A stretch of 64,000 nt of DNA from Macrostomum lignano (taxonomy: Eukaryota): contig NIVC01000906.1 of assembly GCA_002269645.1 (NCBI GenBank), forward strand, positions 350,639 to 414,638, read 5' to 3'. The position numbers were made by a program, and so were the translations under genes. Shown here piece by piece: positions 36,805 to 64,000 of this stretch (the stretch's first letter is position 1; each line of letters opens with the position of its first letter). The notes beneath the pieces are model-generated. The model was not told where the DNA came from. It ran no database searches and saw nothing but the letters and a program-made list of their open reading frames with translations.

Positions 36805-39800
36805 ATGAAGAATCTGAATGCTGCCAGTTCGTTTTCCATCTTTGCGGCTCTGCTAGCGGCCGTCTTGGTTGATGGTTAGTTATTATTATTATTATTATTA
36901 CTATTATTATGTAGGAAGTAAGATAGGGTAGACAGGCATATAAGGCGCATGCATGTAGGTTGCTGTTTTGAAGCTCTCAGGTCCTAGCTCGTACACAAAC
37001 GTTGTTAATCCTCTTTCTCTCGCCTACCCGATCCTGCAGCCTACCCGATGGGACCCCCGGCAGCCGCGTGCCTCAACCAGCAGCCGTTCCACACCAAAAC
37101 TAAGAAAGCGGGCGCCACCGACTTGTACCCGGGCGTTGCTGGCAAAGCTCAGTTTGCCATCACCGTCGGTTCGACAACTTGGAGTGCGGGCGGCACTTTG
37201 ACAGGTAAATATTGGCTTTTTGTAGGGGACGCTTGATTAAGCGTGAATGACACAAACTGCTTGACTCCGGTGCAAGAGCGCATTTTAAATGTACGTATCT
37301 GGCACAAGGACTACTCAAGTAGTCCACAAGTAGTCCTCGAGGGGAAACTCGTTTCTTAGAAAATTTGAGTAGGCAGATTTTTCCGAGAAAGAGACACTAC
37401 GGAGATAGGAAGTTTACATTTTTCAGCACAAAAATGGTTATTGCTTTCGATAGGATGCAGGCCCAATTTTCATTTTTTGATATGTGTTGCGCCTTTCTTA
37501 GGTCTTATCGATATTCATAAAGCTTTCTCGTTCAGAAAATTACGCGTAGGAGTCTATATTAATTTTTATCCTAATTTTTATCCTAAAGGGGTTTCCCGTC
37601 CTTCTTACAATTAAGTAGTCCTTGGTCTGGCACAGGCGGCAGGCGCGTATCTAAATGCAATTTGAGTTCAGGTAATTGATGGATGTTTCATGCGTGTCTT
37701 GATGATTTAGCCCCTCCCCTCAAGTGGAGTTCAGTTCAAGTGAATGCAGAATATTCTCGAGGCTACGGGTCTAAAACATAGGGGCGCTAGTCAGTCATGT
37801 GATGTACATCTTTTGTGGTTCTTAATATACGAAGAATACCTGCAACCACGGGAGAAATTGTGTTGTGGCTGATAGTGCAGATGTTGGTTCGTGCCTTTAT
37901 TGGTATCAAAATTATCTGCACTCTTTTGTCACTGCTCGTCGTTTGGGCGCTTATGTCGAATACTGTAAAAAATACCCATGCGCGCTAATGTCATTCGCGC
38001 TTATTTAGCTCTCCATTATGCAGTGCTCAATCTCACCAGGTACGACATGATCTTATTTTATTATTTTTATTAGAGGTGGGGGTTGTGTGCACCCTGGCGC
38101 ACTTTAAGCGACATAGGCACACAACCGGCGAGAGGCATTACTGCCCATTCCGCCGACTCCCCTGAGCAGGCATACAAGCGCGCGGATACGTACGCAGGCA
38201 CACACTCACACAGGAGTGTACAGCGGCCCTAAATTTATTTTTATCGTTAGGCATGTACACTTCACTGCGCCTTGGGGGGTTGGCTCTCAAGGCCGTTAAT
38301 TGCACGAGCAGAGCCAAGCCGAGATTCCAATTCAGCCCCAAATTAATGTGACTGCACTTGGAATCGAGCCTGGGTCGCTGGCACACCAGAGCAGCTGCGC
38401 TACCGCTGGGCTACGGTCCCCCTACGACATGATCTTGTGATCGTATTAACTAATTAGCTGCTTATAAAACTGTTTCGCAGTGACCCTGGCCGGAGCCTCT
38501 GGCTCAACGAAATTCGCCGGCTTTGTAATGAAAGCAGTTCGAGCATCGAACGGCTATACTAACAACAACCTCGGCCCCCTGCTGGGCAGCTTCGCCTGTT
38601 CAACCTCCGCCGGCATGACTGCCCCGCCAAGATACTTCTCTGTGTACGCGCCAGGCGGGGTGAGGCGAACTGCATCGCTTTCGATGACAAGTCAATGGAA
38701 AACCCTTAAAAGGGCCGTTTTAACTATAAAACTTTCAGGAAAACAACTGCGTCGCGCACTCGACGGGAGACGACGACATGTACAGCTCGGTCACGTGCAC
38801 TTGGACCGCTCCTACTACCAACGAAGGCCCCATAATGTTCTCGTGAGTGTTAATAACTATTGATTACAAGTAATAATTAACTATCTGCATACTCCTTGCT
38901 AAATAATGCAATAAACCTTTCTTTCCAGCGCCACTGTCGTGAGCGACTACGACAAATATCAGACTCAGATTCAGAGCGCTGCCATTCCCAACTCAGCTGG
39001 GGCAGGCAATTTCTCTACTGGCAATGTGAGTCGCTCGCACGATATGAGCTTAAAATGAAGGAAAAATCTTCACCATTGCTCTTCTGGATTGATTTTAGTC
39101 ATCTCACTTTAACCTTTACTTAGAAACTGTGTACCTAGAAGTGACGTGACGAATAAACTTTCTGAGAATCGATAGCACTAGAAGTTGCAGCTAGTTGTAT
39201 GAGGACATAGCCACCGGCGTCCACCCGCGTCCATGAGGATACGCAACCGACAGCTCAGCTGCAGCTATTGCGCGGCACATATGAAAGCTGCTACGTACGG
39301 CTGTTCAGTCCAAGGACTGGGGGTGGCCACACACACCCTCAGTTAAAGCTGGGTGAACTGAAGCAATGTAGAGTTAAGTGTCTTACCCTCAAGGACACAA
39401 ATTGTTCCGAGGCGGTGGATAAGCGTGAGCCCGACGCTCTAAACCCCCCTTCCCCCAACAATGGTCCCTGTATTTAGCAAAAGTGTCCTGCTGGCATATC
39501 CAATGCATGTAGCTTCTACAAACAACTAAATATACTGTTGATGTTTTAGGACTCAAAGATGTTTCAACGGTTGACTCTCACCCGCCTATTGAACTGTTTG
39601 TGTTATCTTGAGTCTTTGTTACCGCCCACAGGACACGCTGCAGTCCATGCCTACCATGTTCGGTTGCGGCTCCACCAAGACCTGCTCTCTCTACCCGCCA
39701 TCGTGCGACACCCGCGGCGGCTGCCGCTACGGCGTGATGATCACCCCGATGCCATCGACCAACCAGCTGATGTTTGAGATTTTCGGCCACACATTCGACT

Positions 39801-47286: not shown

Positions 47287-47391
47287 TTGTATAGTATGCA
47301 ACTGAGTTGAATAATGGCCAAAACTCGAGTGCGCGTAGCGTAGCGCACGAGTGTCTATGGCCATTATTCAACTCAGTTGCATACTATACAA
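47287..47391. other. Perfect 34-bp inverted repeat with a 37-nt spacer
   Basis: TTGTATAGTATGCAACTGAGTTGAATAATGGCCA (47287-47320) and its exact reverse complement (47358-47391). Confidence 0.95.
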
Positions 47392-47409: not shown

Positions 47410-47645
47410 TTAAGAGGGAATTGCTGAGATGTCAAGGCTTAATGGGAAATTGCTAATATGTCAAGGCTTATAGCTAGGGGAATTGCTGGGATGTCAAGGC
47501 TTACAGCTGGGGGAATTGCTAAGATGTCAAGGCTTATGGGGAATTGCTGAGATGTCAAGGCTTATGGGGAATTGCTGGGATGTCAAGGCTTATGGGGAAT
47601 TTCTAAGATGTCAAGGCTTGTGGGATTGTTGAGATGCCAAGGCTT
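47410..47645. repeat. ~29-bp tandem repeat (GGGGAATTGCTGAGATGTCAAGGCTTAT)
   Basis: About seven imperfect copies. Confidence 0.9.
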
Positions 47646-48937
47646 ACTGGAAGCATCGCATGGGTCTATTCTTTAATTTAAGCAATATTTTCATTTTCTT
47701 TTTTGCACTCCCGAACGGGCTGGATTGCTAGTACCTAACTAAATCAAACTTGCTTATCTTTCTACTAAACTGTGTGGAAGTGCAGAACTTTAAATTGGAG
47801 GTGTGTGAATGGGTTTTATCGGAATTTAGCTTACTCGTTTGTTAGCCTAAAATATCCGATAATCACTTGTCAGCTCTTTTTGCATATGCTACAACTATAA
47901 AATCCTAATGTACGCAATTAGTCATAAATTCATTGCAAACGTGCGAAACGTCTTATTGAACAGTTGTTTAATTGAATCCTGTAGAAACTACATGGGGCAG
48001 TTTATCTTGTGTAAAATGCATTTGCTTTCTACAGTGACTATAGCTGCTTCTCAAGTACGCAGAGGCAGGGACGATACAAATTTAGGGACCTTTTTCAAGC
48101 CCAGTGCGTATGAAGCTTTAAAATTTCTCGAAGATGGATCTCTGCGATTCCACGAAAGTGGACAGCAGCAGAGTTGGAAAAGTTGCACAGCGATCCAAAG
48201 CACAAATACCGCTTTGGATCTGCTTACTGCATTTTTCAGAAAGGCTATTTTTAACCAACTCTCGGGAATCCAACTCAAGCCGTAATCGCTCCGCATTTGC
48301 AAATGCAGATGGAGCAACCAAAGCAGCTGAAAAACTTCTGATGCCGTACTCAGCATCTTTCCGAACGCGCCATTCTACCCGAGCAAAACTGTTTCTGAGG
48401 AGCGACCTACCACCACGACACCTGCTCAGACTCGGCGAGAGAGGGCCATGTCTTACTACGAGGACGAGGCGGAAACCTTGCTCGAAACCGATGTCATTGG
48501 GGGCTTCTATGATCTACTGGCGTTCGAGTTTCCCGCCACAATGGGTTTTAAAATCTTTTTTTCCGCGCTAAAAGAAAGAACAGTTTTGTTAATAATGCTA
48601 CTCAACCTTGGGAATCATAAAATTCTGAATGTTTTGCGTTGAATGTTGCAAACCGAATCTTTCTATGCCTTTTACTTACAAAGTTATCAGCCATAGTTCA
48701 AATGAAAAATAGTTGCATTTTCCTATTCTCTCACTGCATTTGTATTCGGCTTTTACCTATAAACTTGTAAGCATTGCTTTGAGTAGTGTCCCTTTCTTGG
48801 GAGCGCAGCGAGCCAATTGTATTCTCTGGCAGAGGGTAAAAGAAAAAAAGAGGAGAGGTCTGTAGTAGGGCGAATTATGATACTGCCGCACTAGCACTGG
48901 CGAGATAGGCGGCAATGCAAATGTATAGGGAAAAATA

Positions 48938-49435
48938 CACTGCGGAGATATGAGCCCTATCTCTGTGCATTGGGGACGGCTAAGCACTGCAGAGATATGA
49001 GCTCTATCTCTGTGCATTGGGGACGGCTAAGCACTGCAGAGATATGAGCTCTATCTCTGTGCATTGGGGACGGCTAAGCACTGCAGAGATATGAGCTCTA
49101 TCTCTGTGCATTGGGGACGGCTAAGCACTGCAGAGATATGAGCTCTATCTCTGTGCATTGGGGACGGCTAAGCACTGCAGAGATATGAGCTCTATCTCTG
49201 CTTAACACAGGAGTGATAGGAGAAGAGGCGGCCTATTTCTTTACACTGGAGATGGTTAACACTGCAGAGATAGGAGGAGAGGCGGCCTATCTCTTTGCAT
49301 TGGGGGTGGTTAACACTGCAGAGATAGGAGGAGAGGCGGCCTATCTCTTTGCATTGGGGGTGGTTAACACTGCAGAGATAGGAGGAGAGGCGGCCTATCT
49401 CTTTGCATTGGGGGTGGTTAACACTGCAGAGATAA
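48938..49435. repeat. Composite hairpin-unit array: six 47-bp units followed by about four 54-bp units
   Basis: Units start at 48938, 48985, 49032, 49079, 49126 and 49173, then 49258, 49312 and 49366. All share CACTGCAGAGATA...TATCTCT.TGCATTGGGG. Confidence 0.95.
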
Positions 49436-49476
49436 GATGTTAATCTATGTAATTGGAAATAATGTTTGCGAAAGAG

Positions 49477-49537
49477 CCAATCACAGAGCCCGGAGTGGGA
49501 TGGGTGGTTTGGGGTGGTTCGGTCGAGGGTATATAAG
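49477..49537 (+). promoter_or_regulatory. Putative Pol II promoter of the viral sense cluster
   Basis: CCAAT at 49477-49481, G-rich boxes, and TATATAAG at 49530-49537, about 105 nt upstream of ATG 49642. Confidence 0.65.
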
Positions 49538-49641
49538 CCCCGAAATTGACAAGGAAGAATTCTCAATTTTTCAAATCCAAAATTTCATCCGAAATTTTCC
49601 TCAGCTTTTAACTTTTGTGAGTTTTCAATTGCGAAAGGAAA

Positions 49642-50418
49642 ATGGACATCTGTGAAGGCTATAAGGCACAAGTCCAGGAGTTTGAAGGACAAAAATTTAT
49701 CGCTATTCGCAAATTTTACCGACACGGCAGCACGGCAAGTCTGAAGCCAGGCGTCCCAGGATTCAACCTGAATGTTCACCAATGGAAGAAATTGAAGGAG
49801 GTGAAACGCTCACTTGTGATTTCTGCACGCAACAACGAGCCCAAGGTCGTGAAACTCGGCTTCGATAAGTTTGTGGAAGTCAAAGGCGGCATCATTTGGC
49901 TCAAACGGCTGCCGGAAGATTGCTGCGAGGAGTTTTTGAGACGAAACGCCGTACCACTGACTCCGCCGCTGTGGCAGAAGCTCTGGAAAATCGCCTCCTG
50001 GATCGACGGTCAGCTGGTGGCTCCCTTGAGGAACACAATGCAGTACGAGCTGGAGTCTGATGAGGAAGAGGAGGAAGAGGACAAGAAGCTCAAGTTGGAG
50101 GCTGACCAGGACACGAAGCCCATAATGGAGACTGATGAGGGCGGAGATCATGCTGATGACGAGGACGTTAGCTCGCCCACAAGGCCGCGCATTGTGACTG
50201 AGCCAATCACATCCACACCGATACCTTCGGTTGATTCTGATGCTGGACTGCTTCCGCAGCGGGACACCAACCTTGAGGAAGATCCGGTGTGGTATCAGTT
50301 CAGGGCGCATGCAGCGGCTTCGACGGTGAGCAGCAGCAGCAGGAAGCGAAAGCTGCCATTTCAACTTCGTCGGCAGGACGCGATGAGGCTGCAGCCCAAT
50401 GTTCGCTTTGATAACTGA
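49642..50418 (+). CDS. PC4/Sub1-like ssDNA-binding coactivator with two tandem PC4-like repeats and an acidic tail
   Basis: EFEGQKFIAIRKFY...KPGVPGFNLNVHQWKKLKE matches the PC4 signature; a second repeat reads LGFDKFVEV...LTPPLWQKL. Confidence 0.8.
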   Translation: MDICEGYKAQVQEFEGQKFIAIRKFYRHGSTASLKPGVPGFNLNVHQWKKLKEVKRSLVISARNNEPKVVKLGFDKFVEVKGGIIWLKRLPEDCCEEFLRRNAVPLTPPLWQKLWKIASWIDGQLVAPLRNTMQYELESDEEEEEEDKKLKLEADQDTKPIMETDEGGDHADDEDVSSPTRPRIVTEPITSTPIPSVDSDAGLLPQRDTNLEEDPVWYQFRAHAAASTVSSSSRKRKLPFQLRRQDAMRLQPNVRFDN

Positions 50419-50738
50419 ACAGCTAGAATGCTTTGAATGCATTGGACTAACTAAATTACTTTTAGCTTGCACATGATTATCCAGCCTGACGGCACTATGC
50501 TGTTTTTTATCTCTGCTATTTCTGAAATGCTGGTGTGCGAGTGTTTTAGTGTTCGTTTTTATGGATTGTTTGCTTTCGGAAAATACACCGACTGTTACGA
50601 TGTTAGAGGTTTCAATCTGACAGTAATAAATTAATTTGCCACTCGTTTCTCTATCATTTAATTGGAATATAAATTTCTACTTAAGAAAAAATACTGTACA
50701 GCTAGAGCAGGTGGATAGGCACGTATCTTGATAAACCC

Positions 50739-51809
50739 ATGATGGAGAAAATTTATTTGAAACCTGAGCAACCGGCTAGTTTTTCTTGTGCCTCAAAGTT
50801 GCTGCATGAAGTGAGGCAAAGAGGTGATCGAATATCTGCAAAGAGCATTGAGCAGTGGCTCAGCGAGCAGCCAGTGCACACTCTGCACAAGCCAGCTAGG
50901 AGGCGATATCCAAGGGCCCCAATCATAGTGCGCGCAATCGATGATCAGTGGGAACTTGACTTAGTGGAAATGATTCCATTCGCAAAGCATAATAAAGGCT
51001 ACAAATATATTCTCACATGCATTGACGTGCTCTCAAAATGTGCTTGGGCCAAGGCACTGAAAAATAAATCTGCTGCAGAAGTGAAGTCAGCATTCGAGAG
51101 CATACTGAGAAGTTCAAAGCGCCAGCCACGCACAGTTCGCACAGATCAGGGGAAGGAATTTATCAACTCCACTTTCCGTCAATACTGCATTGACAGAGGG
51201 ATTCTGGCTTTCCCAACTAACAGCGAGCAGAAGGCAGCTGTCATTGAGCGATGGAATCGAACTCTGAAAAGTAGAATGTGGCGCTACTTCACCTACAAGA
51301 GCACACTGCACTGGCTTGATGTGCTGCCTAAGCTGGTAAAATCCTACAACAATACCTACCACAGAAGCATCAAAATGGCACCCACTAGTGTCTGCAAAGA
51401 GAATGAATCTGAAGTGTGGATGAACCTGTACGATGGAAAAGCAGTCGAGACTCTAGAAAAATTAAAGAAGCCTAAGTTCGCTGAAAACCAGTCAGTGAGA
51501 ATTTCCAATGCTCCACGGATATTCAAAAAGGGATACAAAGCGAGCTGGAGTGAGGAAGTGTACACCGTGGTGAGCAGAGCCCCAAAACATTATCCCTACA
51601 TGTACAAGATTAAAGACATGCGGGGGCAAGAGATTCGAGGACTCTTCCATGAGCACGAGCTGCAGGCTGTCCCGGACTCACAGCGGCTGTATGTGATTGA
51701 GAAGATCCTGAAAACGGAGAAGCGGAAGGGAAAAATTCGCTATCTGGTGAAATGGGCGGGCTACGACTCGACTGGCTGGGTGGATGAAAAAGACTTAAGA
51801 AAGGTTTAG
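50739..51809 (+). CDS. int: Retroviral-like (rve) integrase with C-terminal chromodomain
   Basis: QWELDL, IDVLSK, TDQGKEF, IERWNRTLK, YNNTYHRSIKMAP; chromodomain YVIEKIL...YLVKWAGY. Confidence 0.97.
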   Translation: MMEKIYLKPEQPASFSCASKLLHEVRQRGDRISAKSIEQWLSEQPVHTLHKPARRRYPRAPIIVRAIDDQWELDLVEMIPFAKHNKGYKYILTCIDVLSKCAWAKALKNKSAAEVKSAFESILRSSKRQPRTVRTDQGKEFINSTFRQYCIDRGILAFPTNSEQKAAVIERWNRTLKSRMWRYFTYKSTLHWLDVLPKLVKSYNNTYHRSIKMAPTSVCKENESEVWMNLYDGKAVETLEKLKKPKFAENQSVRISNAPRIFKKGYKASWSEEVYTVVSRAPKHYPYMYKIKDMRGQEIRGLFHEHELQAVPDSQRLYVIEKILKTEKRKGKIRYLVKWAGYDSTGWVDEKDLRKV

Positions 51810-51837
51810 CTTTGGCACAGCCCTCATCATGTAGTTT

Positions 51838-52656
51838 ATGATTATAATGCGAACTATTTTGATTAACAGTGAGCATGCTGAAGGTACTCCTAGTGACTTT
51901 AATTTTTACCTGCCTTCACCTATTTACTTGGATCGAAATGTGGACTATGAGGCAGGTCTGGCTGAAATCCATCTGCCTGCTGCATGGTTCAATGTTGACG
52001 AGCCTTACTGCTTCACTGTCTCAGATGGAAGAGAGCATGAGGCCCTGGTTCTTCAACCCGGACGCTTTGCTAGAGTGGAGGAGCTGGTGGAGCGCCTGAA
52101 TGAGCTGCTGGCCAACTCTGATTCGCTGTTCTTTGATGCAATGAGTGACAGGGAGTCTGAGATGGAGGCTGATGAGTCCGGCCTGATGGGGCGTAGTGGC
52201 AACAGGGAATTTGGTATGAAGTTCGAAATCCGCAACTCACGAACTGTGGTGCACAACAACACTGCGAGAGCAGAGCTGTTTCTTCCATCTAGTAAAATTC
52301 TGCATTGGCTGGGATTTGGAAACCAGGCTGTGAAAATCCAGCCAGGGAGCCGCGTATCCGAGCATTGCATTGGCTGCCCGCGCACCAGCTTAATCAATGT
52401 GCACTGCAGTATCGTTGAGTCAACTAATTGCAACTGGAGCTCCTTGTTGAGAACAGTTGGAATGAAAGCTGGCATTGAATGGGGCAACTATCAAACAAAA
52501 ATATTTAAGAAAACAATATTCTTCCCGATTCAACGAATCAGTCTTCTTCACAGCATTCGAGTTCAGCTGCGGGACATCTATGGTTGCCCACTGATTGCAC
52601 AGACTCACAGCCCTGTTCTGCTTACAGTTCAAATTCAGGAGAAACGCATTCAATGA
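51838..52656 (+). CDS. Minor capsid protein (penton, single jelly-roll), putative
   Basis: TPSDFNFYLPSPIYL..YEAGLAEIHLPAAWFNV N-terminus, and C-terminal VHCSIVES..LLRTV..IRVQLRD pattern typical of Polinton pentons. Confidence 0.75.
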   Translation: MIIMRTILINSEHAEGTPSDFNFYLPSPIYLDRNVDYEAGLAEIHLPAAWFNVDEPYCFTVSDGREHEALVLQPGRFARVEELVERLNELLANSDSLFFDAMSDRESEMEADESGLMGRSGNREFGMKFEIRNSRTVVHNNTARAELFLPSSKILHWLGFGNQAVKIQPGSRVSEHCIGCPRTSLINVHCSIVESTNCNWSSLLRTVGMKAGIEWGNYQTKIFKKTIFFPIQRISLLHSIRVQLRDIYGCPLIAQTHSPVLLTVQIQEKRIQ

Positions 52657-53030
52657 ACTACCAGCAGCTAATCCAGCAATATTCGGGGGTGAGGACAGGA
52701 CACGAAAAGCCTGCACTCTATGGCTGTGGGAGCTTCCCAGGGATCATGACATACCAGCCTCCGCCAGCGGCTATATCATCATCATCAGCCTCGACGCTTA
52801 GCAACGTCAGGCGCAAAAGAAATACTGAAGCAAGTCCGAAACGATTGAAGAAAAAGAAGGGCACCCGAAAGGCAACTGGTGGAAATCGCAGTAAGAGGTC
52901 GAGCAAGGCTAGTGGGAAAAAGCTTAAGAATAGGAAGACGAAAGCAAAGAAGAATAGAGCAGGCGGAGGAAAGCGAAAGCAAAAAGTCAGCAAGAAAACT
53001 GTGAAACGCGTGCTCGACTCTCTGTCATAG
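52653..53030 (+). CDS. Small basic Lys/Arg-rich putative virion core protein
   Basis: YGCGSF motif and a very basic C-terminus. The ATG overlaps the penton TGA, and the stop lies 2 nt before the capsid ATG. Confidence 0.6.
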   Translation: MNYQQLIQQYSGVRTGHEKPALYGCGSFPGIMTYQPPPAAISSSSASTLSNVRRKRNTEASPKRLKKKKGTRKATGGNRSKRSSKASGKKLKNRKTKAKKNRAGGGKRKQKVSKKTVKRVLDSLS

Positions 53031-53032
53031 AC

Positions 53033-54316
53033 ATGGCTTACGGATTCAATCCCAGACTTGATTTATTTAAGACGCCCGTTCTACAAACCTGCATTGAAAA
53101 AGCTACTTATGTTGATATTCACCCAGTTAATTCCATTGTTGCAAACTCTCCCATTGAATTTGACTGCCACCAATCTGCCGATGAATATACAGATCTGCTT
53201 AATTCTTTTCTTTATATTCGCTGCCGCCTTGTGAGACTGGATGGGGGTTTGCTGAGGGAGGATGTTCGAGATGGAGATGGCATCATCACCGAGCGCAGAG
53301 ACAGTGACGTGCACCCAGAAAATTTTGTTCTGTCTACAGCCTTCTCAGATGTAATTGTGAGCATTAACCAGCGAGTGGTGTCTGGTGGAGACCAGCTCTA
53401 TCCCTACCATGCGTACTTCAAAGCACTAATGAGCTCATCCGATGCCCAGCAACTAAAACTTTACCCTGCTGGCTTCCTGGAGCCGAACTCGGCAGCTGAA
53501 GAGCACACGGAGAGCCACAGGGAATCCCAATGGATGGAGTATGCGGGGCCGCTCTTCAGCGATGTTTTCCAGTGCCCAGTGTTTCTGCTAAGCAATCTGC
53601 ACCTGCACATCAAACTGGTCCCCAGCGATGGGGCCTTTGCCATCAGAACCCCGAATGCAAACAACGCGGCATACCGAATGGAAATCTCTCACAGCATTCT
53701 GCATCTTCGCCGAGTCAAAGTGATGCCCCACATCAGCCTGGCCCATGAGCAGGGGCTGACAAACCAAAATGCACTGTATCCCATCGAGCGAACTGAAATG
53801 CAGAACTTCATCCTACCCCAGGGTATTCAGTCAAAAAACATTGAAGGATTCACTCATGGAAAATTGCCGAAGTTCATCATGCTGGCCTTCGTGAGCCACC
53901 GAGCATTCAACGGTCATCATCACGCGAGCCCGTTACAGTTCCAGAGCTTCAACCTTAGCCGATTGGCTCTAAAGAAAGGTGGGGAAACCGTGTGCCACGG
54001 CGCCTTCACACCTGAAAACAATTCCTTCGTAAGAGAATACTTGCACTACCTGAAAAGCTGTCAATCTGCAAGCCACACAAACTCGGTCCCGTGGATCCCC
54101 TACCAGCTCTTCTCCAACAACACCACGGTGTTTGCATTCGATCTCACACCCGAGGGAGCGGCTCTGTGGTACGGACAGAAGGAGGGCAACCTGCGGCTGG
54201 AGATTCGCTTCCAACAGGCTCTGAATGAAGCGGTGTCCCTGATTGCTATGTGCCTGTATGACTCGCTGATTGAGGTCACCAAGCACCGAGAGCTTTTGCT
54301 GGACTATTCCTCTTAA
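53033..54316 (+). CDS. Major capsid protein (double jelly-roll, hexon-like)
   Basis: LFKTPVLQTCIE..YVDIHP..SPIEF..EYTDL; GKLPKFIMLAFV..AFNG..PLQFQSFNL; FAFDLTP..GNLRLEIRF; 427 aa, intact. Confidence 0.92.
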   Translation: MAYGFNPRLDLFKTPVLQTCIEKATYVDIHPVNSIVANSPIEFDCHQSADEYTDLLNSFLYIRCRLVRLDGGLLREDVRDGDGIITERRDSDVHPENFVLSTAFSDVIVSINQRVVSGGDQLYPYHAYFKALMSSSDAQQLKLYPAGFLEPNSAAEEHTESHRESQWMEYAGPLFSDVFQCPVFLLSNLHLHIKLVPSDGAFAIRTPNANNAAYRMEISHSILHLRRVKVMPHISLAHEQGLTNQNALYPIERTEMQNFILPQGIQSKNIEGFTHGKLPKFIMLAFVSHRAFNGHHHASPLQFQSFNLSRLALKKGGETVCHGAFTPENNSFVREYLHYLKSCQSASHTNSVPWIPYQLFSNNTTVFAFDLTPEGAALWYGQKEGNLRLEIRFQQALNEAVSLIAMCLYDSLIEVTKHRELLLDYSS

Positions 54317-54321
54317 TTGAC

Positions 54322-54834
54322 ATGGATGCAATTCAACTACTTAATCTCGCCAGAAAATTTTTGCCTTACCAAAAATTTCTCATAGTTACTTTACATTTGC
54401 GCTATAAAAATTCTCTGCCCTTGAATGTAAAAAGAAAATTTAGATCATCAATTTCCTTTGAAAACAAGTTTGTTTTTGTCCTACTTCAGCACAATGGCTC
54501 ATTTGGTCACTGGGTGGTGTGCTATGTTGGGCAAGGAAATCGCATTGAGTTGTTCAACTCCCTCGGCTGGGAACCTGAAATTTTATCTTTGGTTTATAAT
54601 TTGTTTCGAGAGATTAAAACAACTGGCTTTTGGCTCCGAAGCAATATAAACAGAGTTCAATGTGCTAACTCTAATAAATGCGGAATGTTTTGCATCTATT
54701 TTGCTTATCAAAAGTTTCTGTTCAATCGGTCATTTGAGGGGATTTTGAAGCATTTGCATGCTAATGAGAAAAATCATTTGAATGATAGAATCTTACAGAG
54801 GTTTGAAGCCAACTTAAGAAAAAGATGTCCGTGA
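54322..54834 (+). CDS. Adenain-like cysteine protease
   Basis: GHWV, ELFNSLG and VQCANSNKCGMFCIYF (Q and catalytic C). Confidence 0.85.
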   Translation: MDAIQLLNLARKFLPYQKFLIVTLHLRYKNSLPLNVKRKFRSSISFENKFVFVLLQHNGSFGHWVVCYVGQGNRIELFNSLGWEPEILSLVYNLFREIKTTGFWLRSNINRVQCANSNKCGMFCIYFAYQKFLFNRSFEGILKHLHANEKNHLNDRILQRFEANLRKRCP

Positions 54835-55504
54835 TTTCTAATATTTATGCATTAAACATGGGAGAAAAGCAAGTTTGCTACGATATCCGCCTCAGGCAGG
54901 GAAGCTGCATGATTGTCTGCGGGCCCACCAATGCAGGAAAAACAACCTTTGTCGAACACCTGATCCAGTACAGAGACGTCATGTTTGATGTGAAGCCTGG
55001 CAGAGTTCTGTGGTACTATGGGATCTCACAGGCAGGCCATGCAGAACTGAACAGCCTAGGTGTGCAGCTGCGCCAGGGATTTCCCACCAACATCGAGGCA
55101 GCACTTAGGCCCAATGACCTGGTTGTTTTCGATGACTTAATAGAGGAAACTTCAAACTCTGCTTCAATGCGAAATTTTTTCACAGGAATCGCACATCACT
55201 TGCCGTGCTTTTTGGTGATGCTGACTCAGAATATATTTTTCAAGGGAAAAGAGTCGCGAACAATGAGCTTGAATGTAATGTACTTAGCTATCTTGAAAAA
55301 CCCCGAGACCAGCTGCAGATTGCAGCACTGGGCAGGCAGTGCTTTACAGAGAAGCCCGGCTTTCTGCTGTCAGTGTTCAAGCACGTGACCGCGCAGGGCA
55401 GGGGAGCCTACCTGTTCCTAGACTTTCACCCATCAACTCCCGATGAGCTGCGAGTGCGGGCCAGAATTCTGCCCAACCAGCGACCCCATCTTGTATTTGC
55501 TTAA
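54825..55504 (+). CDS. A32/FtsK-like packaging ATPase, split by a 1-nt frameshift at about 55301-55304
   Basis: Walker A GPTNAGKT, Walker B LVVFDD, HH..LTQNIF. After LKNP the homologous RDQLQIAALGRQ continues in the -1 frame. Confidence 0.9.
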
Positions 55505-55545
55505 GAAAGTGAAGCTTGTTTTTATCAGCTATTGTTTTCATCGCA

Positions 55546-55884
55546 ATGGAAGTGCTTGATTCATATGCAAGTCTTTTTGCGGTTCTTGCGTCACCTAAAT
55601 ATACCGTGCGCTTCAAGCGGCTGTTGATAAAAAATTGTCCAAAAGAAGTGCGTTATTTTCTTGTCGAGGCCTGCCATAATCTCTTACAAAACAATCTATC
55701 GTTTTCGCTCGATGAAAAAGCTGTTCTTGCAAAGTCAAAAGAGATAATTCGAAAAATTACTCACAAAAGAAGAAAGACAGACTTGTTGAAGGCTGGCTTC
55801 ATCAAAATACTCCCGATTCTGCTTAAGCTGGTAAAGAAGAAGAAGCAAAATGAACAAATTTTCAGAAATGGTTCTGATTCCTAA
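55546..55884 (+). CDS. Small basic conserved Maverick protein
   Basis: LVEACHNLLQNN...KIT..KRRK..LLKAGFIKILP resembles the ECALN.L.GN / GGF.LP small protein of Mavericks. Confidence 0.6.
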   Translation: MEVLDSYASLFAVLASPKYTVRFKRLLIKNCPKEVRYFLVEACHNLLQNNLSFSLDEKAVLAKSKEIIRKITHKRRKTDLLKAGFIKILPILLKLVKKKKQNEQIFRNGSDS

Positions 55885-56542
55885 AGCAGAGTATGAGATG
55901 TTGATGCAGAATTTGAAGCCAAATGAGACTACCACTGAAGCTGACTTGAAGCAGGCTCAGAAGAAATGCGATGACATCTTGTATGCCGAGGATTGTCCAG
56001 AAGATGTGAAAACCGCCATGTACCAAAGTGCAATGCAAAGTTTGCTGGCCAAGCGCAAGCACGCTGGAAAAGAAGGAGCACGCAATACTGAAGCCAAGTT
56101 GATGAAAACAGAGACACCCCAGATAAGCACCTGGGAAGAGAAGATCAGCAAGTCGGTGCCACAGAAATTCAAAACCAGGGCTCGCAGTCTGTGGACGATC
56201 CTGTCCACCAATCCAGAGCTGATTCGAGTTTGTGAAAACGGGGAGGTGGAAATCGCAGGCACGTCAATCCCTTCCTCAAACATACTGGACTTGATTCAGC
56301 ACACAGTGAGGGATTCGCCATGTGAGCGTGAACCAGTTGGGTGGAACGAGTTCATCGATTTTCTGCAGCAGAAAAAGCTTAATGTTCCGCTTTCCGCTGT
56401 TGGTAAATCAGTTAAGAAGAAAATGGCAACCAGCAGAGGGGGTGAACTGGAGAAAGAACAGGAGAGTCTAGTCAAGGGGTACGGGAGCAACACAGCCTGG
56501 CTGAAATTGCCTGCCAGAAAAGTATATAAGAAGGTGGACTGA
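55850..56542 (+). CDS. Conserved uncharacterised Maverick protein
   Basis: KSVP.KFKTRA..L, NGEV..G..IPSSNILDLI, PVGW.EF...NVP pattern seen in Polinton ORFs. Confidence 0.7.
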   Translation: MNKFSEMVLIPKAEYEMLMQNLKPNETTTEADLKQAQKKCDDILYAEDCPEDVKTAMYQSAMQSLLAKRKHAGKEGARNTEAKLMKTETPQISTWEEKISKSVPQKFKTRARSLWTILSTNPELIRVCENGEVEIAGTSIPSSNILDLIQHTVRDSPCEREPVGWNEFIDFLQQKKLNVPLSAVGKSVKKKMATSRGGELEKEQESLVKGYGSNTAWLKLPARKVYKKVD

Positions 56543-56571
56543 CTCCGAAATTTTCGAAGGAAAGCTGCATC

Positions 56572-57423
56572 ATGAACTACATTGACTTCCAAGGATTCCC
56601 GTGCAACAGCACAAGCAAAAAATTTGTTGTGAAGGAGTTGGCAGTTGTTCAAATCAGAGCGGGGAGCTACCACATTGCTCACCATGTGTACGCACCTCCG
56701 TATCCATGGGAGAGAGTCTCACCTGACATGCGAGTTTACTACAGACAGCTATCTAAGAGTCTGCACCAGTTTAAGTGGAATGATGGAACCCGTCCGTACA
56801 TGGAACTGGCGGAAGACATTCTGAGCATTGCCAGTGGTCCGATCTGGTCAAATGGGGAAAGGAAGTCGATTTTTCTGACTGAGCTGCTTGGAAGACAGGT
56901 TTATAACCTAGAAGATTTGGGAGCACCCTCGACTGAAGATTCAGATACTGGCTGTGCAGTGAGAAATTCGTTGCTGCACTACAGTTGGCTTAAGCCAAAG
57001 TTCTGCATCAACTTAAGAAGCGAGCAGTGTCCGTGGCACACGAGCAGTAAAGTTGGCAGAAGCAGATTTGGTGAAGAAGTTGACGATCGAAATGAGCCCA
57101 CCAGCTACAGCCCTAAGAGTGACCAATCTGGTTGGCGGAGTAGATCTGAGACTGGATGGTGGCAGGGGCGCTCAGCTGCCTCTACGGGAACTGGCTCTCA
57201 GCATGGCTCATGTGATCTACCGGCCCGTCTGGCCCCGGGTGCTCATCAAGCGGATGCGGATTCCCAGAGTGACTCTCCTACTCTACCCTACTGGGCAACT
57301 GAGCATCTGCGGTGCCAAGACCCACGCAGACGCCAAAAGGGCTGCCCGTCGCTTCGTGGCTATGCTGCATCGGAGAGTGCCGGCTCAACTGCTGCCTCAT
57401 CAAACAATTTGTGTTCGAATTAA
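56572..57423 (+). CDS. DEDD-like exonuclease-fold Maverick protein; C-terminal ~110 aa overlap the next ORF and may be non-functional
   Basis: IDFQGF..FVVKELA..PPYPW..HQFKWNDG.RPY..NGERK..VYNLEDLG..CAVRN. Confidence 0.6.
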   Translation: MNYIDFQGFPCNSTSKKFVVKELAVVQIRAGSYHIAHHVYAPPYPWERVSPDMRVYYRQLSKSLHQFKWNDGTRPYMELAEDILSIASGPIWSNGERKSIFLTELLGRQVYNLEDLGAPSTEDSDTGCAVRNSLLHYSWLKPKFCINLRSEQCPWHTSSKVGRSRFGEEVDDRNEPTSYSPKSDQSGWRSRSETGWWQGRSAASTGTGSQHGSCDLPARLAPGAHQADADSQSDSPTLPYWATEHLRCQDPRRRQKGCPSLRGYAASESAGSTAASSNNLCSN

Positions 57424-57664
57424 AACTATTACTGCTCATGGACAGCTCCCAGTTCATTCCGCACTTTCCTTATTAATGTTAAAATCAATTATCCCAAACG
57501 CCGAATATGAACCAGAATCCTTTTCTGCTTTAATTTTCAATTTAAACTTTTGTAAATGTCTGCTTTTTCACAGCGGCTCTTTTGTTCTCAGTGGAGCTCG
57601 GTCCTTGAATCAGTTGCATACCGATAGCATGCGTCTACTCAATGTAGTTCTTTCCATTGAATAA
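57092..57664 (+). CDS. Divergent TATA-binding protein (TBP)-like core, 190 aa
   Basis: Two TBP repeats: VTNLVGGVDL..LPLRELAL..VIYRPVWPRVLIKRMRIPRVTLLLYPTGQLSICGAKTHADAKRAARRF and AEYEPESFSALIF..CLLFHSGSFVLSGARS. AATAAA x2 at the stop. Confidence 0.85.
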   Translation: MSPPATALRVTNLVGGVDLRLDGGRGAQLPLRELALSMAHVIYRPVWPRVLIKRMRIPRVTLLLYPTGQLSICGAKTHADAKRAARRFVAMLHRRVPAQLLPHQTICVRIKTITAHGQLPVHSALSLLMLKSIIPNAEYEPESFSALIFNLNFCKCLLFHSGSFVLSGARSLNQLHTDSMRLLNVVLSIE

Positions 57665-58266
57665 AAATAAAGTCAAGTCAAGCAATTTGCCGCAAATATT
57701 TCAATGATTAGTGAAAAGTGAATAAAAGGATAAACTTGGTATTCTTTACATTCATTTTCCCAGGCAGACAGCTATGGAACACTTCAAAAACGTATTTAGC
57801 CCATCACCAAAAGTATCGCAAAACGCATATCAAATCCGAAAGTAAACAATACTACCATCGTTATAACAAACGATGTGCACCGAGAGAAGAGAAATAGAAA
57901 AGTGATAGAGAAAATATGATTAAAACGCTGATTGAATTTACAGGAACAATTTGTGTCAGATAAAAACCAAAAACACATTTTAAACAAGTAGTACACAAAG
58001 CAAACAAAAATGAATTAATATTGTATGAGCGCACTTGCCACACAGCTTTATAAAAAGTAAAACTTAAATTGATATCAATATTTCACGCCGCAAAAACAAA
58101 TTGACAGCTAAATCTAGCGCAATTAGCCAAGCATACAAATTTGTAAAAGTTACTACATGCAAGTCACTACATTTAAAACAGAATTTGGCAATTTAAACAA
58201 CTCTAAAAGCAAGAAAAAGTACTAAACAGTCTGTTAAACACCCGCACTAGACCAGTCGGATGCGCT

Positions 58267-61200
58267 TCAGCTGATCGTGGATGCGGGCGTCAGCGCATAG
58301 TGTCCGTAGGGCAGGCTTCGATTACTGCTAAGCCACACTCGCTTATCCTCCCACACCGATAGGCTTCTTTTCTCCATGACCGACGTGAAGATTTCGTGTT
58401 TCTTGGAAACAATCGCTGTCATGGCAACCATCTGCTCTTGCTTGGACTCGAACGCGTCGACATAGTTCGCATGCGAAATTTGCTGTCTTACTACTGACTG
58501 CTTCACGCCTTTGGCAGTTTTCTTGATCTTTGCACTCGAATTCTCGGCAGGGAGAAACGAATAAAGTTTTGGACGCAAAAGAATCCACTCCTGGTAAATT
58601 CCACCAGCAGATTCATCTTTAACGCAGCCCAGCTTTCCTTTTAACTCTTCAGAGAAATGCGGATGGTCTCGAGAATAGTTGGATGTGTCAAGTATTTTTT
58701 CCTCTCTAAGCTTCGGGATTACCTCCGATGTTAAATCATGATTCTTGAAAGCTAGAAAAAATGAGTCAGTATCACCTCCGCAAAGCATCATGTCTCTGGA
58801 ACCGTCTGAATGACAGAACAGCGGTCGGAGCCTGTCATATAGTAGGCTGTACATGGCCATCTTAGAGAGATCGAGAACTGCCTGGCCAACGAAAATGGCC
58901 TTGTCAAGCGTGACTTTATCTTTTTTGAGCTGAAAAATGCTCAACGACTCATTGATAATCGAGAATGCGGCACAGTTTGGTCGAGAGGCGCAAGTTTCTG
59001 CTTGAGTCTGGTTAGTGCAAATTCGAACATCGCATCTTTTTCGAACGTTCTCCATAGTTTTTCCAAAGAGAGAATTGTTTTTCAATTTGTAAAAATCCTT
59101 AGCAAACTCGGAAGTTGCCAAAGCTCTTTTTTCATTGTTGCTGGCAATGTACGGCGCGAAAATATTTTCCTGCTTGAACGAAATCATTTTTTTGACGCAC
59201 TTGATCCGCATTCCGTGTTGCAGGTAAAATCTTAAAACGGTGCTGTGAACTACGTAAGAATCCTTGTCGGTACAGGTGAGTAGAAGCTTCTCCGTTGCTT
59301 GAAACTTAGCTTCAGCATTGCCAGTTCGCTGTTCAGCAATCTCTTTCCATAGTTCGGCCATGTACGGCGAGAATTGATCTGGCTGTGGTTTTGATTTTTC
59401 AGGTGCAAACGGTAACTCCTGAGTCGAATCGTGAATCTCAGCTGGGTATTCTAGATCGAGTTGAACAAGGTAGGCGATCTCGGCTTCTGGATTGAGTGAC
59501 AGAAACCGATTGGAGTCCCAGAACTGGATTTCCTGTTCCGGTACCCACCTGAATTCCCTGCATGGAAGCGGAAGCGACAGGGCAAAGCCATACAAGTTGT
59601 TCATATCGATCGGCATGAGGCTTACACTCTCTTGCTGATCATCATAACCTGGCAAGCTAGGATTATTACCTTTGACGCAATGCACATTAATGAAGGACAT
59701 GCCTCCTCGTATTCCCTTCTCAAACAGATGATACATGTCAGCATCAGTCAGCTGCTCTAGAACCACTCCAGTCGACTTTAGAGCTGAGTCGTAAGACAAA
59801 CCAGGAGTAGTAAAGTAGTGTACCGGATCCAATCCGTCCTCTTTCAGACTGGCCTGTCGGAATGTCTCGAAAATGTCAGCCAGCTGCCTTACATCCATTT
59901 CAAGATAGGCGAGCATATAATCCTTCAAACTTTTGCATTGAAATGCCGCCCATGCCGCTCTTGCTCTATTGTAGTCGTCGTCGGAAATTCCCCGATCGGA
60001 AAGTCGATTAAAAAAAGCATCTTTAGGCGGCAAAACCGACTGCTCGAGAATCTCAAATCCTGTGAGGTAATCATATGGGAAAATCCCTTTTTTTCGAAGT
60101 AGCTCTCTTGAAAGATGTGGTCTTGACTCAAGCATTTGCATTGTCAGCTTGCATTCAGCTTCGGGAAGATTAGCAAACAAATTGGACAAACTTCCCTTCA
60201 AAAAGCAGAGCGAGTCGATGAACTGAATTGTAAACATGATTGGCACAACTTTTCCGTTCTTTACGTAACTTGCAACAGGGAATTCCGCCCTTAGTGACAA
60301 GTATCGCTCGGATGATTGCGGAACAACACTAAGTTTCCAATTTTTCATGCTCCCAAGCGCAGTGGAAAGTAGAAGATGAAGGTCGTAGCCGCCTAAGTTG
60401 TGAAAAACCAGGGGCAGAAACCGGCGTCGGAGCTGTGCTCGCAGGTTGCATTCTTGACATGCTGCACCTTTGTACTGTCCATTTAAATGATCGTGGTCAA
60501 AATGTTTATCTGTAGAACTTTTAAAGTTCTTCTTGCAGTAGTGACATACCTCAGCAGAATTGAAATCATCCATGACGGTCGCGGATGATCGGTCAGCCGG
60601 CTGGTGGCTATGCTTCTGGTTCCAGTGAAATATATCCTGAGCCAGGCTTTCAAGAGATTTGAGAAAACCAAGGATACACTCATCAGGGTCCGCATTGCAA
60701 AAGACCTTGTACATGTCTCCTTCTGGCCTAAGCGGAGGTCCTGTCATGCCTTCACGAGGCACTGCAAGAAAAGCTGCTGCACATGGTTCATGCTTTGAGA
60801 TCAGGTTAGCAGGGTCTGTGTTCGCTCGCAAAATGGCTTCCAGGTCGGCATAGGCAACGAATGGTGGACTGACAGTGTTTTGACAGTTTCGGAACTTTAT
60901 TTCATTCTGTCCTGGAACTGGAAGCGTTTCTTTGACAGGATTTTCTGCAGTAATGCTGCATTCGTTCCTGTGCTCTTGAAGCCTCTCGTTGCTATAAAAT
61001 GATGTTAAACATTTCGTGCACCACTTCCTCATGGCGGGACCATTACGACTGTTCATTAACCTGTCAAAATTAGTAATTGCACACCAGTGCTCCGATCCGT
61101 AGCTGTCTTTAACTAGCAAAAGCATGAGGTGTCTTCGGTCATCTGACTCATGCTTGCGGCGACGGAGAAGAGTCACACTGCCCTGCTGCCAAGAGAACGC

Positions 61201-61596
61201 AGAAATGCAAATTCCTGGATTGTTAGACTCGACGCGATCGATATCAGCGACACTCACTGGCATGGAGATTTCTGCAAAGTCCAGCTCACGCAACCATTCA
61301 TCGTAAGAGGATATTCTGTTGGGCGATTTCTGAACTTTCGGATCGGCGCTGTGCAGTGCAGCGAGACAGGCGTACAGGAAACAGTCTTTGCCTGTGCTCG
61401 GTGGATTGATAACAGCCTTTTTGTTCTTCAAACTGGCAGGAAGATTGAATCTAACGGCTCTGCCCTGGCGAAATCGAATTGGATTGTACCTGGCAAGGTT
61501 GATGTCTAGAAAATTAATTTGTTTAATTGTCCAGCCACTGCCGTTCGTATTAATCATACTACAGATCCTCTCCAACTCCTGCTCCTGCTCAATCAA
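58267..61596 (-). CDS. polB: Protein-primed family B DNA polymerase with an endonuclease VII-like insert
   Basis: Exo YADLEA, FHNLGGYD and YLEMDV; Pol IDMNNLYG, KLKNNSLFGK, GDTDS and RPKLY; insert CHYC..DHDHLNG..KGAACQECN. The N-terminus extends upstream across a frameshift. Confidence 0.97.
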   Translation of the reverse strand: MIEQEQELERICSMINTNGSGWTIKQINFLDINLARYNPIRFRQGRAVRFNLPASLKNKKAVINPPSTGKDCFLYACLAALHSADPKVQKSPNRISSYDEWLRELDFAEISMPVSVADIDRVESNNPGICISAFSWQQGSVTLLRRRKHESDDRRHLMLLLVKDSYGSEHWCAITNFDRLMNSRNGPAMRKWCTKCLTSFYSNERLQEHRNECSITAENPVKETLPVPGQNEIKFRNCQNTVSPPFVAYADLEAILRANTDPANLISKHEPCAAAFLAVPREGMTGPPLRPEGDMYKVFCNADPDECILGFLKSLESLAQDIFHWNQKHSHQPADRSSATVMDDFNSAEVCHYCKKNFKSSTDKHFDHDHLNGQYKGAACQECNLRAQLRRRFLPLVFHNLGGYDLHLLLSTALGSMKNWKLSVVPQSSERYLSLRAEFPVASYVKNGKVVPIMFTIQFIDSLCFLKGSLSNLFANLPEAECKLTMQMLESRPHLSRELLRKKGIFPYDYLTGFEILEQSVLPPKDAFFNRLSDRGISDDDYNRARAAWAAFQCKSLKDYMLAYLEMDVRQLADIFETFRQASLKEDGLDPVHYFTTPGLSYDSALKSTGVVLEQLTDADMYHLFEKGIRGGMSFINVHCVKGNNPSLPGYDDQQESVSLMPIDMNNLYGFALSLPLPCREFRWVPEQEIQFWDSNRFLSLNPEAEIAYLVQLDLEYPAEIHDSTQELPFAPEKSKPQPDQFSPYMAELWKEIAEQRTGNAEAKFQATEKLLLTCTDKDSYVVHSTVLRFYLQHGMRIKCVKKMISFKQENIFAPYIASNNEKRALATSEFAKDFYKLKNNSLFGKTMENVRKRCDVRICTNQTQAETCASRPNCAAFSIINESLSIFQLKKDKVTLDKAIFVGQAVLDLSKMAMYSLLYDRLRPLFCHSDGSRDMMLCGGDTDSFFLAFKNHDLTSEVIPKLREEKILDTSNYSRDHPHFSEELKGKLGCVKDESAGGIYQEWILLRPKLYSFLPAENSSAKIKKTAKGVKQSVVRQQISHANYVDAFESKQEQMVAMTAIVSKKHEIFTSVMEKRSLSVWEDKRVWLSSNRSLPYGHYALTPASTIS

Positions 61597-62159
61597 CCAG
61601 TTGTTTAAACGGCCTGCTTCACCACCTAGGTCTAGGCCTGCATTTTACAGCTTATCCATCTGTCCTCTTCGGCAAGCATCTCCCCATCTCTTATTCGGAC
61701 CATTCGAATATTCGCCTTTAGCTGAACTTTGTAATGATGTCTTGAAATTCTTTGCTGAACTGCCTCAATAATTTTGTCTCCAGCTTGGACAAAAAATTCT
61801 GACGGAAGCGTGTCTGGGTGACTCGATCTGAGCCTCAGTATTTCCAGTGATTGATCATAGGCTTGGGCAACTCTGCTGAAGCTGACTGTTGAACCTGGTT
61901 TGTGGTTTTAGGATAATATTTTTGTTTTTTGCTGCCTATAGTTTCAAATATCAAAGATACTAAACTAAACGTCTGTACCCAAGCATACATGTACAACCCT
62001 ACCGGTATAAAGTCTTTTATCTCCCCTTCTCCCATTCTTTGGACTAAAATTTTAGACTGCATAATATACATCGCATTGATAAGAAAATTTTTAAGTAAGT
62101 TGAAAAGGATAAATAAAGGCACTTACCTTGGTGTGCATCAGTCACCGACTCGCTGTTGG

Positions 62160-62520
62160 CTGCTGACTCGCTGCTGGCTGCTGACTCGCTGCTGGCTGCT
62201 GACTCGCTGCTGGCTGCTGACTCGCTGCTGGCTGCTGACTCGCTGCTGGCTGCTGACTCGCTGCTGGCTGCCGACTCGCTGCTGGCTGCCGACTCGCTGC
62301 TGGCTGCCGACTCGCTGCTGGCTGCTGACTCGCTGCTGACGTCATGGTCCACCCAAGGGTGGTCATACTCGATCCACGAGTGGTCATCCTCCATCCACGA
62401 GTGGCCATTCTCCATCCATGAGTGGTCATTCTCCATCCATGAGTGGTCATTCTCCATCCATGAGTGGTCATTCTCCATCCATGAGTGGTCATTCTCCTGC
62501 TCCATCCAGGAGTGCTCAAC
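62160..62520. repeat. Adjacent 18-bp (SESAAS) and 21-bp (ENDHSWM) in-frame repeats
   Basis: Unit lengths are multiples of 3 and lie within one open minus-strand frame. Confidence 0.9.
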
Positions 62521-63539
62521 CATAGAAAAGGCAAGCAGTTAAAAGCTGACAGTGTTTACTGGCTGCAACTGAGTGTCATAAGCAACTGGGAGTGAATATT
62601 TGAAATCTTTTTCGTAAGTCTTTATTGCTGCAATACTGGTACAATATCCACACTTACAAGCTAGTAGATGCTGGTTATATTTTTTTGGTTCTCCTTAAGC
62701 TAGCTCTCTGCATGCATATTCTATTGATCCCTATTCGTAAAAGTTCGTTTCTATTTGCCTCCTACGCAGACTCAATCGGTAAAAAATGCAAAATGAAGCC
62801 AATAGTTAATTAACAAACCAATCACCGAGTGGAAAAATGCTGACATTATATATATTTTTTTAAAAAAAATATCGAATTCACATGGTGCAATCATAGTCAA
62901 TAAACAATGCATGGAACAATGAATTACAAATACAGACGAGAGTTTAGAAGCAGAAATATAGCTGAAAAGTTCAATAATTAAAGAATGAGGAAACACCGCG
63001 TCAAAGCAGTAGAAAGAAAATTATACCTAATCAATCGCACCAAGCATACGAAACCATCACCAATTTATTGAAAGTATGTTATGTTGATTTTAATTTGTTA
63101 AATTCAACTGTATAATGTTTCACCTACTTTTCAAATAATTTTTTTTACCTCGGATACCAAAAAAATATTGGTTGCCACTACGAGCTACGAGCTTTTTTTA
63201 AAACTAATTTGGAAATGAAAACTGAAAACTTATAAGCAAGATTCCTAGAAGCGAATACAGAGTTATGAGATGATCAAATCATTAATTAATGTACCTACTT
63301 TCAACTTTAAAAAGCTAGTTGAAATAAAGTTTTAGCAATAATTGCAATAAATGGGTAGATTTCTCACTCCACACAGAAAGCAAAAAAGTACAAAAATTGC
63401 TTAGTCACAGCGGCACAATTCTAATACGATTTTCGAAAATCGTTACCTCGTACCCAGCCCCGCCGACAGGAGGCAGAAAGAAGGCAACTCCAGCTGGCAC
63501 GGGTGGAGTTTCGGATTGAGAAGCTGGAATTGTAGAGGC

Positions 63540-64000
63540 TGCAGCTGGGGCGGCTGGAGCAGCTGGGGCAGAGAGCAGCTGGGGCGGCCAGAGCAGCTGG
63601 GGCGGCTGGAGCAGCTGGGGCGGCCAGAGCAGCTGGGGCCTGGAGCAGCTGGGGCAGCCAGAGCAGCTGGGGCGGCCAGAGCAGCTGGCGGCAGAGCAGC
63701 TGGGCGGCCAGAGCAGCTGGGCGGCCAGAGCAGCTGGGCGGCTGGAGCAGCTGGCGGCAGAGCAGCTGGGCGGCCAGAGCAGCTGGGCGGCCAGAGCAGC
63801 TGGGCGGCAGAGCAGCTGGGGAGCAGGCCAGAGCAGCTGGGGGCCAGAGCAGCTGGGCGCTGGAGCACGGGGGGCCAGAGCAGCTGGGGCGGCTGGAGCA
63901 GCTGGGGGGCCAGAGCAGCTGGGGCGGCCAGAGCAGCTGGGGCGGCCAGAGCAGCTGGGGCGGCCAGAGCAGCTGGGCGGCAGAGCAGCTGGGGCGGCTG
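63540..64000. repeat. GC-rich ~18-bp repeat (GAGCAGCTGGGGCGGCCA), running off the window
   Basis: Visible units of 15-18 bp. Confidence 0.9.

Follow-up and report, generated by a model that had tools for sequence, protein, structure and literature searches.

A 64,000-nucleotide stretch of the Macrostomum lignano contig NIVC01000906.1 (positions 350,639-414,638, forward strand), hereafter the window, carries one integrated copy of what is very probably a young, multi-copy family of Maverick (Polinton/adintovirus-type) elements of this flatworm, whose coding set is unbroken in the family as a whole and whose one-base frame breaks in this copy are most likely assembly errors. The original prediction, made from the sequence alone, named a Maverick/adintovirus-type element with all core genes, and every open reading frame (ORF) was found at the position and in the order that it gave, in agreement with both the Pfam assignments and the capsid fold. 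On the plus strand lie, in order, genes for a PC4-like protein, an integrase, a 272-residue protein, a basic protein, the capsid, a protease, an ATPase, proteins of 112 and 230 residues, a nuclease-like protein and a TATA-box-binding protein (TBP) homolog. The protein-primed B-family DNA polymerase (pPolB) is encoded on the minus strand, with its 3' end at 58,267, convergent with this block. Coding frames account for 11,239 of the 12,266 bases (92%) between 49,642 and 61,907, and in the stretch that starts with the integrase and closes with the nuclease-like gene, adjacent genes are spaced by no more than 41 bases or overlap by no more than 35. The Pfam families represented are PC4, rve with a chromodomain, Peptidase_C5, TBP, and DNA_pol_B_2 with Endonuclease VII; searches of the element proteins against PHROGs and NCBIfam profiles gained little beyond these.

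The central component of the virion module is the 427-residue product of 53033..54316 (plus strand), for which structure prediction confirms the fold of a double-jelly-roll major capsid protein. [quoted passage not shown] Relatives of this capsid at 57-79% identity, among them some at 78-79%, retain full length. The adjoining adenain-like maturation protease (54322..54834, plus) scores 23 bits against Peptidase_C5 (7e-5; cut-off 21.3 bits) and presents His63, Gln113 and Cys120 as motif residues, with Asn79 between them; a comparison with solved structures gave no meaningful match. Of the virion module as first proposed, the capsid is upheld by its fold and the protease by Pfam, and the penton, basic core protein and packaging ATPase are supported by position, motifs and an Atlas look-alike instead of a family hit. 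The position of the 272-residue ORF (51838..52656, plus) and its Atlas look-alikes, which are unnamed clusters of 227-283 residues from viruses and eukaryotes (feature score 0.97), make it the probable minor capsid protein (penton). The Lys/Arg-rich ORF of 125 residues that follows it (52653..53030, plus) returned no family hit and is a possible virion core protein. The packaging ATPase (54825..55504, plus), interrupted by a frame break near 55,300, retains Walker A (33-40) and Walker B (100-104) motifs, to which the profile libraries add weak P-loop matches; its position and motifs make it a putative member of the FtsK/A32 type.

Upstream of these genes, the plus-strand block opens with the PC4-like single-stranded DNA-binding or coactivator protein, of 258 residues with an acidic tail (49642..50418; Pfam PC4, 5.5e-8; PC4 structures, 4e-5). 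A second PC4 repeat, seen by eye in this ORF, was not confirmed on checking. The retroviral-like integrase (356 residues; 50739..51809, plus; Pfam rve, 3e-13) ends in a chromodomain (Chromo, 1e-5) and carries its DDE residues at motif positions D74, D136 and E170; a TATA-like word lies about 70 bases upstream of its start. Downstream of the ATPase, a 112-residue ORF with no significant family hit (55546..55884, plus) has an amphipathic, basic C-terminus, presumably PW-like, and is followed by a 230-residue ORF (ORF230; 55850..56542, plus), which has a counterpart in a related M. lignano element; a look-alike of its N-terminal part opens the M. lignano gene model P0037.

The polymerase gene (58267..61907, minus; Pfam DNA_pol_B_2, PF03175, 2e-12) is divided by a frame break near 61,635-61,645 into two pieces that together span 1,214 codons. 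Its regions comprise a terminal-protein region, vOTU-like Cys and His motifs, exonuclease motifs I-III, an Endonuclease VII insert and polymerase motifs A-C, and all six of the exonuclease and polymerase motifs were located. The upstream piece aligns to residues 30-61 of a relative of 1,198 residues and 50% identity (E 4e-10), and 3,218 relatives of the polymerase are found at E<=1e-30. In the main frame, the Cys and His of the vOTU-like motifs stand at residues 59 and 157; as motifs they fit the OTU-like domain as PMC11071308 describes it in the text consulted, and mark a candidate domain of this kind. Motif C reads GGDTD; this was considered as a lesion and rejected, since 8 of the 12 closest relatives share it; across 150 relatives, the same form occupies 25 of the 140 or more such sites. 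The PF03175 score is weak (47 bits) and leans towards Beta adintovirus, defined by a PolB divergent from the PF03175 type where that of Alpha is archetypal; the portion of the PMC10748475 table consulted files the host loci as PolB1. The Endonuclease VII/HNH insert and motif C both fall within 59000-60600. Beyond the polymerase, a repeat-encoded acidic and Ser-rich ORF (62127..62523, minus) ends at a perfect 5' splice site, the sole GTRAG donor in 62,520-61,900, and is in phase with the N-terminal (terminal-protein) frame of the polymerase at several candidate acceptors; that frame has no earlier ATG. From these signals the ORF is a candidate spliced first exon of the polymerase, or else unrelated to it.

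The last two plus-strand genes were predicted as exonuclease-like and TBP-like; their positions and order stand, and to these must be added an overlap of 110 codons that had gone unmentioned. The TBP-like protein is a divergent two-repeat homolog of 190 residues (57092..57664, plus; Pfam TBP, 8e-25), with AATAAA at 57,660 and 57,666 at the 3' end of its gene. Its model (pLDDT 80) has the two-repeat saddle fold, and aligns to archaeal, human and yeast TBP with Z of 15-16 and 22-25% identity (best Z 16.3 archaeal and 16.2 human, over 175-180 residues), the next unrelated structure having Z 7.6. The alignment keeps the YEPE stirrup and the second-repeat phenylalanines, features associated with the binding of TATA DNA and TFIIB; because the corresponding first-repeat positions read W and Y, the DNA preference of this protein may differ from the canonical one. 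Among the 8,000 candidates scored in a word-based search, relatives at 70-99% identity came from M. lignano records and Logan contigs and from no other source. The nuclease-like ORF (56572..57423, plus) resembles unnamed Atlas clusters of 155-181 residues (0.96); an RNase H/DEDD-like identity is a lead, and a score of 0.87 to a Maelstrom cluster a weak lead only. Its last 110 codons overlap the TBP-like gene (57092-57423) in another frame. Codon usage gives P=0.011 for this overlap, computed post hoc, an equally long open run in the shifted frame occurs in none of five other ORFs, and the overlapped half of the TBP-like gene is the more conserved half. Other contigs share the overlap region and then diverge, with loose ends at 57,102 and 57,441-57,443. 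Dual coding would be one reading of the overlap; a shared module or the loss of a stop would be others.

Judging from its sequences, the family is young and multi-copy. The view that the element is recent is supported by near-identical copies. Matches of 99-100% identity between element proteins and the M. lignano protein records P0030 and P0029 identify the host as Macrostomum. Of 24 listed runs, 20, which belong to 8 studies of a single organism, contain 0.86-0.91 of the sampled element words, and the other 4 contain next to none. Differences among copies comprise 20 synonymous and 16 non-synonymous changes and no stop, where 28% synonymous would be expected (P=5e-4; 36 coding assignments from 40 listed of 134 differences); among the capsid differences listed, 5 of 7 are synonymous. 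The structural gene block falls apart into numerous loose-ended contigs, which is what sharing of the block among several related families would produce, and TBP-like relatives at 70-89% identity exist beside the capsid relatives at 78-79%. No related locus was found in viral contigs, none of 211 pattern matches in metagenome contigs was confirmed, and exact look-up of window proteins in a protein collection returned 0 of 10. Two assemblies bear on copy number, of which LFJF01 is presumably an earlier M. lignano assembly. The other, NIVC01, is the M. lignano Mlig_3_7 assembly (PMC5730564). Supplementary Table 3 of PMC10748475, as consulted, lists 748 integrase-linked pPolB in 8 flatworm genomes, 78 in NIVC01 and 175 in LFJF01; all 78 NIVC01 rows were compared with the window. 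By frame lengths and scores, seven of the 78 NIVC01 rows resemble the window in having an integrase frame of 1,104 nucleotides (its length) with one shared hidden Markov model score; six of these seven have a polymerase frame of 1,220-1,221 codons, against 1,214 in the window, and the seventh is shorter. Polymerase frames of 1,220-1,221 codons occur in nine of the 78 rows, and six of the nine pass the table's filter for terminal inverted repeats (TIRs).

The limits of this copy are less clear than its genes. Positions 49,440 and 62,523, originally given as bounds, are not element ends, and the proposed TIRs and 6-bp target-site duplication (TSD) were looked for in the window and not found; a repeat finder and self-BLAST returned no TIR pairing the left and right sides. 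The description of the copy as near-intact is supported for its core gene set, which is present; its completeness is not supported, as neither TIR nor TSD was found within the window. The coding core measures 12.3 kb, where the criteria for Mavericks are a length of 13-25 kb, TIRs of 100-1,500 bp and a TSD of 5-8 bp. The window extends only 2.1 kb past the polymerase, and the right end of the element probably lies beyond 64,000, outside it. Single AGTAGT (48,782) and AGAGAG (48,438) words were considered as ends and rejected, as they mark none. Tandem arrays occupy 47,416-47,646, 48,938-49,434, 62,147-62,497 and 63,541-63,998. The second of these consists of two adjoining arrays (48938..49434, no strand; a 47-mer x5.6 and a 54-mer x4.3), which are possibly subterminal element repeats or, since the host part of the window is full of minisatellites, host minisatellites. 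Farther left, 47287-47391 holds a perfect 34-bp inverted repeat around a partly self-complementary spacer of 37 bases, which may be a small foldback element close to the Maverick's left end. Between two tandem arrays, in 47863-48642, are three open frames that overlap one another and measure 100-150 codons; none matched a known family, and they may belong to a decayed accessory region of the Maverick or to another repeat. At the opposite side, open frames on the minus strand over a GC-rich 18-mer array (63405-64000) run off the window and may still be inside the element.

Expression of the element is supported indirectly. A TBP-like protein 99% identical to that of the window (one residue differs) is annotated as M. 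lignano Mlig021525g17, and, according to the accessible text of PMC5730564, RNA-seq underlies the annotation of this species, in which nearly identical transcripts carry a common prefix. No RNA run is among the listed runs that contain element words. One run, X1, was guessed to be RNA and has a contig covering the spacer between the convergent genes, with no splice joint, so that it may be a DNA run and was set aside. Trans-splice acceptors are not enriched before the 11 plus-strand starts (P=0.16), and a trans-spliced operon is thus unsupported.

By analogy with known relatives, the polymerase would use a protein primer to copy the linear genome after its excision, the terminal-protein domain being freed by the vOTU-like protease; protein-primed replication and such a release are described for the family in the consulted text of PMC11071308. 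The PC4-like protein might coat single strands or act as a coactivator, the rve integrase would insert element copies, and the capsid, penton, ATPase and protease would together package the genome. The TBP-like protein would probably help to bring host RNA polymerase II to the promoters of the element. As a guess prompted by the PIWI control of planarian Polintons (PMC8532177, in part), the nuclease-like protein might interfere with silencing by PIWI-interacting RNAs (piRNAs).

The two one-base lesions initially noted, in the ATPase and at the N-terminus of the polymerase, are both present, as frame changes near 55,300 and near 61,635-61,645. Their placement at short homopolymers is true of the ATPase break, which lies in homopolymer runs, and not of the polymerase break, which lies at doublets. 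The suspicion that they could be sequencing errors gains support from contigs of four public runs, from four studies, compared with 49,440-62,140 (tandem arrays excluded). At the polymerase break, all four runs give contigs whose length departs by one base from that of the window; at the ATPase break three do, the fourth listing no depth there. A third, trivial one-base difference appears in all four runs at 58,278, within the last polymerase codons and past the stretch shared with relatives. Over the polymerase region, the four contigs (4.3-4.7 kb) show 3, 1, 0 and 0 substitutions as opposed to 2, 3, 2 and 4 gaps, and the two substitution-free contigs have 2 gaps over 4,536 letters and 4 gaps over about 4,310. 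Real sequence decay yields mainly substitutions. Because these insertions and deletions come with almost no substitutions, the breaks are in all likelihood sequencing or consensus errors. If they were instead real mutations private to this copy, the family would be whole in its other copies, and the window would contain a member disabled recently and possibly truncated at an end. Such an account accommodates the absence of a TIR from the window, and it is helped by the contigs giving majority paths only and by other copies carrying one-base differences of their own; however, two to four length differences with zero to three substitutions over more than 4 kb are the reverse of the usual mutation spectrum, and we regard private mutation as improbable.

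Several observations nevertheless weigh against an intact, recently active family. Asn79 of the protease stands where an acidic residue is usual. The contigs merge copies and drop rare variants, and are consequently no proof that the breaks are absent at the window locus. Some copies of the family are broken, to judge from two of the four runs, whose contigs depart by one base in length within the tail of the protease gene (54,768), and from one run with further differences of this sort in the genes for the capsid, ORF230 and the polymerase. Neither TIR nor TSD was recovered from the window, the assignment of table rows to its family rests on frame lengths and scores rather than on sequence, and several rows may be one insertion, the reference line having duplicated chromosomes (PMC5730564, in part). 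Moreover, among 29 capsid matches there is no near-identical capsid protein from the host annotation.

This last point also favours a family that spreads only within the genome as a self-synthesising transposon, its capsid module a young relic or silenced and no particle being formed. Such a mode of life fits the anatomy set out above, and agrees with the statement in PMC8097293, made for vertebrates in the text consulted, that Maverick particles were then unobserved, and with the repression of planarian Polintons by PIWI (PMC8532177, in part). Against it, the capsid, penton and protease frames are open, the listed capsid differences are mostly synonymous (5 of 7) and capsid relatives at 57-79% identity are full-length; on balance we give it slightly less than an even chance. 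A bolder proposal appears unlikely. In it, the family would be an integrating DNA virus active in M. lignano today, making particles in everyday laboratory cultures, running its genes by means of a TBP and a PC4 of its own and having a dual-coded nuclease/TBP overlap. A free virus or contaminant mis-joined to host DNA during assembly is barely credible. The junction with host DNA does lie outside the read-contig comparison, from which tandem arrays were excluded; yet a fraction of 0.86-0.91 of the element words recurs in 20 runs from 8 studies on a single organism, long host scaffolds carry similar loci far from their ends, and intron-containing host genes stand to the left of the element.

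These host genes, at 1505-45200, have minisatellite-filled introns and encode an E2 ubiquitin-conjugating enzyme, a mitochondrial carrier, IMP dehydrogenase, a major facilitator superfamily transporter and a cytochrome b561-like protein. An intron of the last holds a degraded insert (43854-44872, minus) with no Pfam hit and with the word WIPGH, typical of the RNase H domains of long interspersed elements. A dispersed repeat with a tRNA-like head, present in at least three copies (10350-10635, 35663-35921 and 39245-39384), is probably a short interspersed element.

Elements of this kind are known, and host loci have already been catalogued in bulk; the pairing of TBP with PC4 and the tractable host are modest points of interest. 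No published description of the family or of its TBP was found in a search that covered neither Repbase, figures nor most subscription papers. Mlig021525 is not mentioned in the literature searched or in the supplements of PMC5730564, PMC12801592 and PMC7806878. TATA, PC4 and Maelstrom are absent from the searched text of PMC11071296, figures excluded, as are TBP and PC4 from the searched text of PMC11131425, PMC11071308 and the Starrett supplement (possibly incomplete), again excluding figures. The M. lignano UniRef models P0029, P0034 and P0037 stitch together capsid, ATPase, ORF230 and TBP-like pieces of such elements; models labelled 'TATA-box-binding protein' (P0034) or 'Parvo_NS1 domain' (P0029) are element pieces and not host genes. 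Virion formation by animal Mavericks is a long-standing question, and it can conveniently be addressed in an established laboratory flatworm with a young family of near-identical copies whose capsid genes are under selection. If the family does form particles, a transparent, transgenic model animal would give direct access to this question.

In its gene content, the element resembles the Mavericks/Polintons and adintoviruses described in the consulted text of PMC8502044 and PMC8097293, with a pPolB that carries OTU-like motifs, an rve integrase, an adenain-like protease, a putative packaging ATPase, the major capsid protein and a probable minor one, and shares with them two facing modules and tight gene packing. 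Intact young Mavericks are common in animals, with 134 in 17 vertebrate species (PMC8097293). In vertebrate Mavericks, as that text presents them, the ATPase lies beside pPolB, whereas here it lies in the capsid module; the possible intron at the 5' end of the window pPolB likewise has no counterpart in the intact vertebrate elements it describes. Among flatworms, Orthopolintovirales insertions are mentioned in the accessible part of 10.1101/2025.04.19.649669, and the planarian Polintons of PMC8532177 are Mavericks of another flatworm order, transcribable and targeted by piRNAs, likened here by description only. The flatworm pPolB loci of PMC10748475 come from the same host species, belong to the same family by frame lengths and are classed as PolB1; in the portions of its main text and supplement consulted they are given as coordinates, without a gene map or accessory genes, and Macrostomum is not named. 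The PC4-like, nuclease-like and TBP-like accessory genes distinguish the window element from the Mavericks and adintoviruses compared. A divergent, virus-borne TBP is nonetheless shared with the MELD viruses, whose TBP homologs appear in the legend to Figure 5 of PMC8502044 and in the preprint 10.1101/697771, as far as these sources were available. TBP-like genes are also common in giant viruses; those in BFVD (Heterosigma akashiwo virus, Terrestrivirus and those like B263R of African swine fever virus) have the same fold at only 10-20% identity. Together, the TBP and PC4 pair suggests that some Mavericks carry part of a transcription-initiation kit, as giant viruses do.

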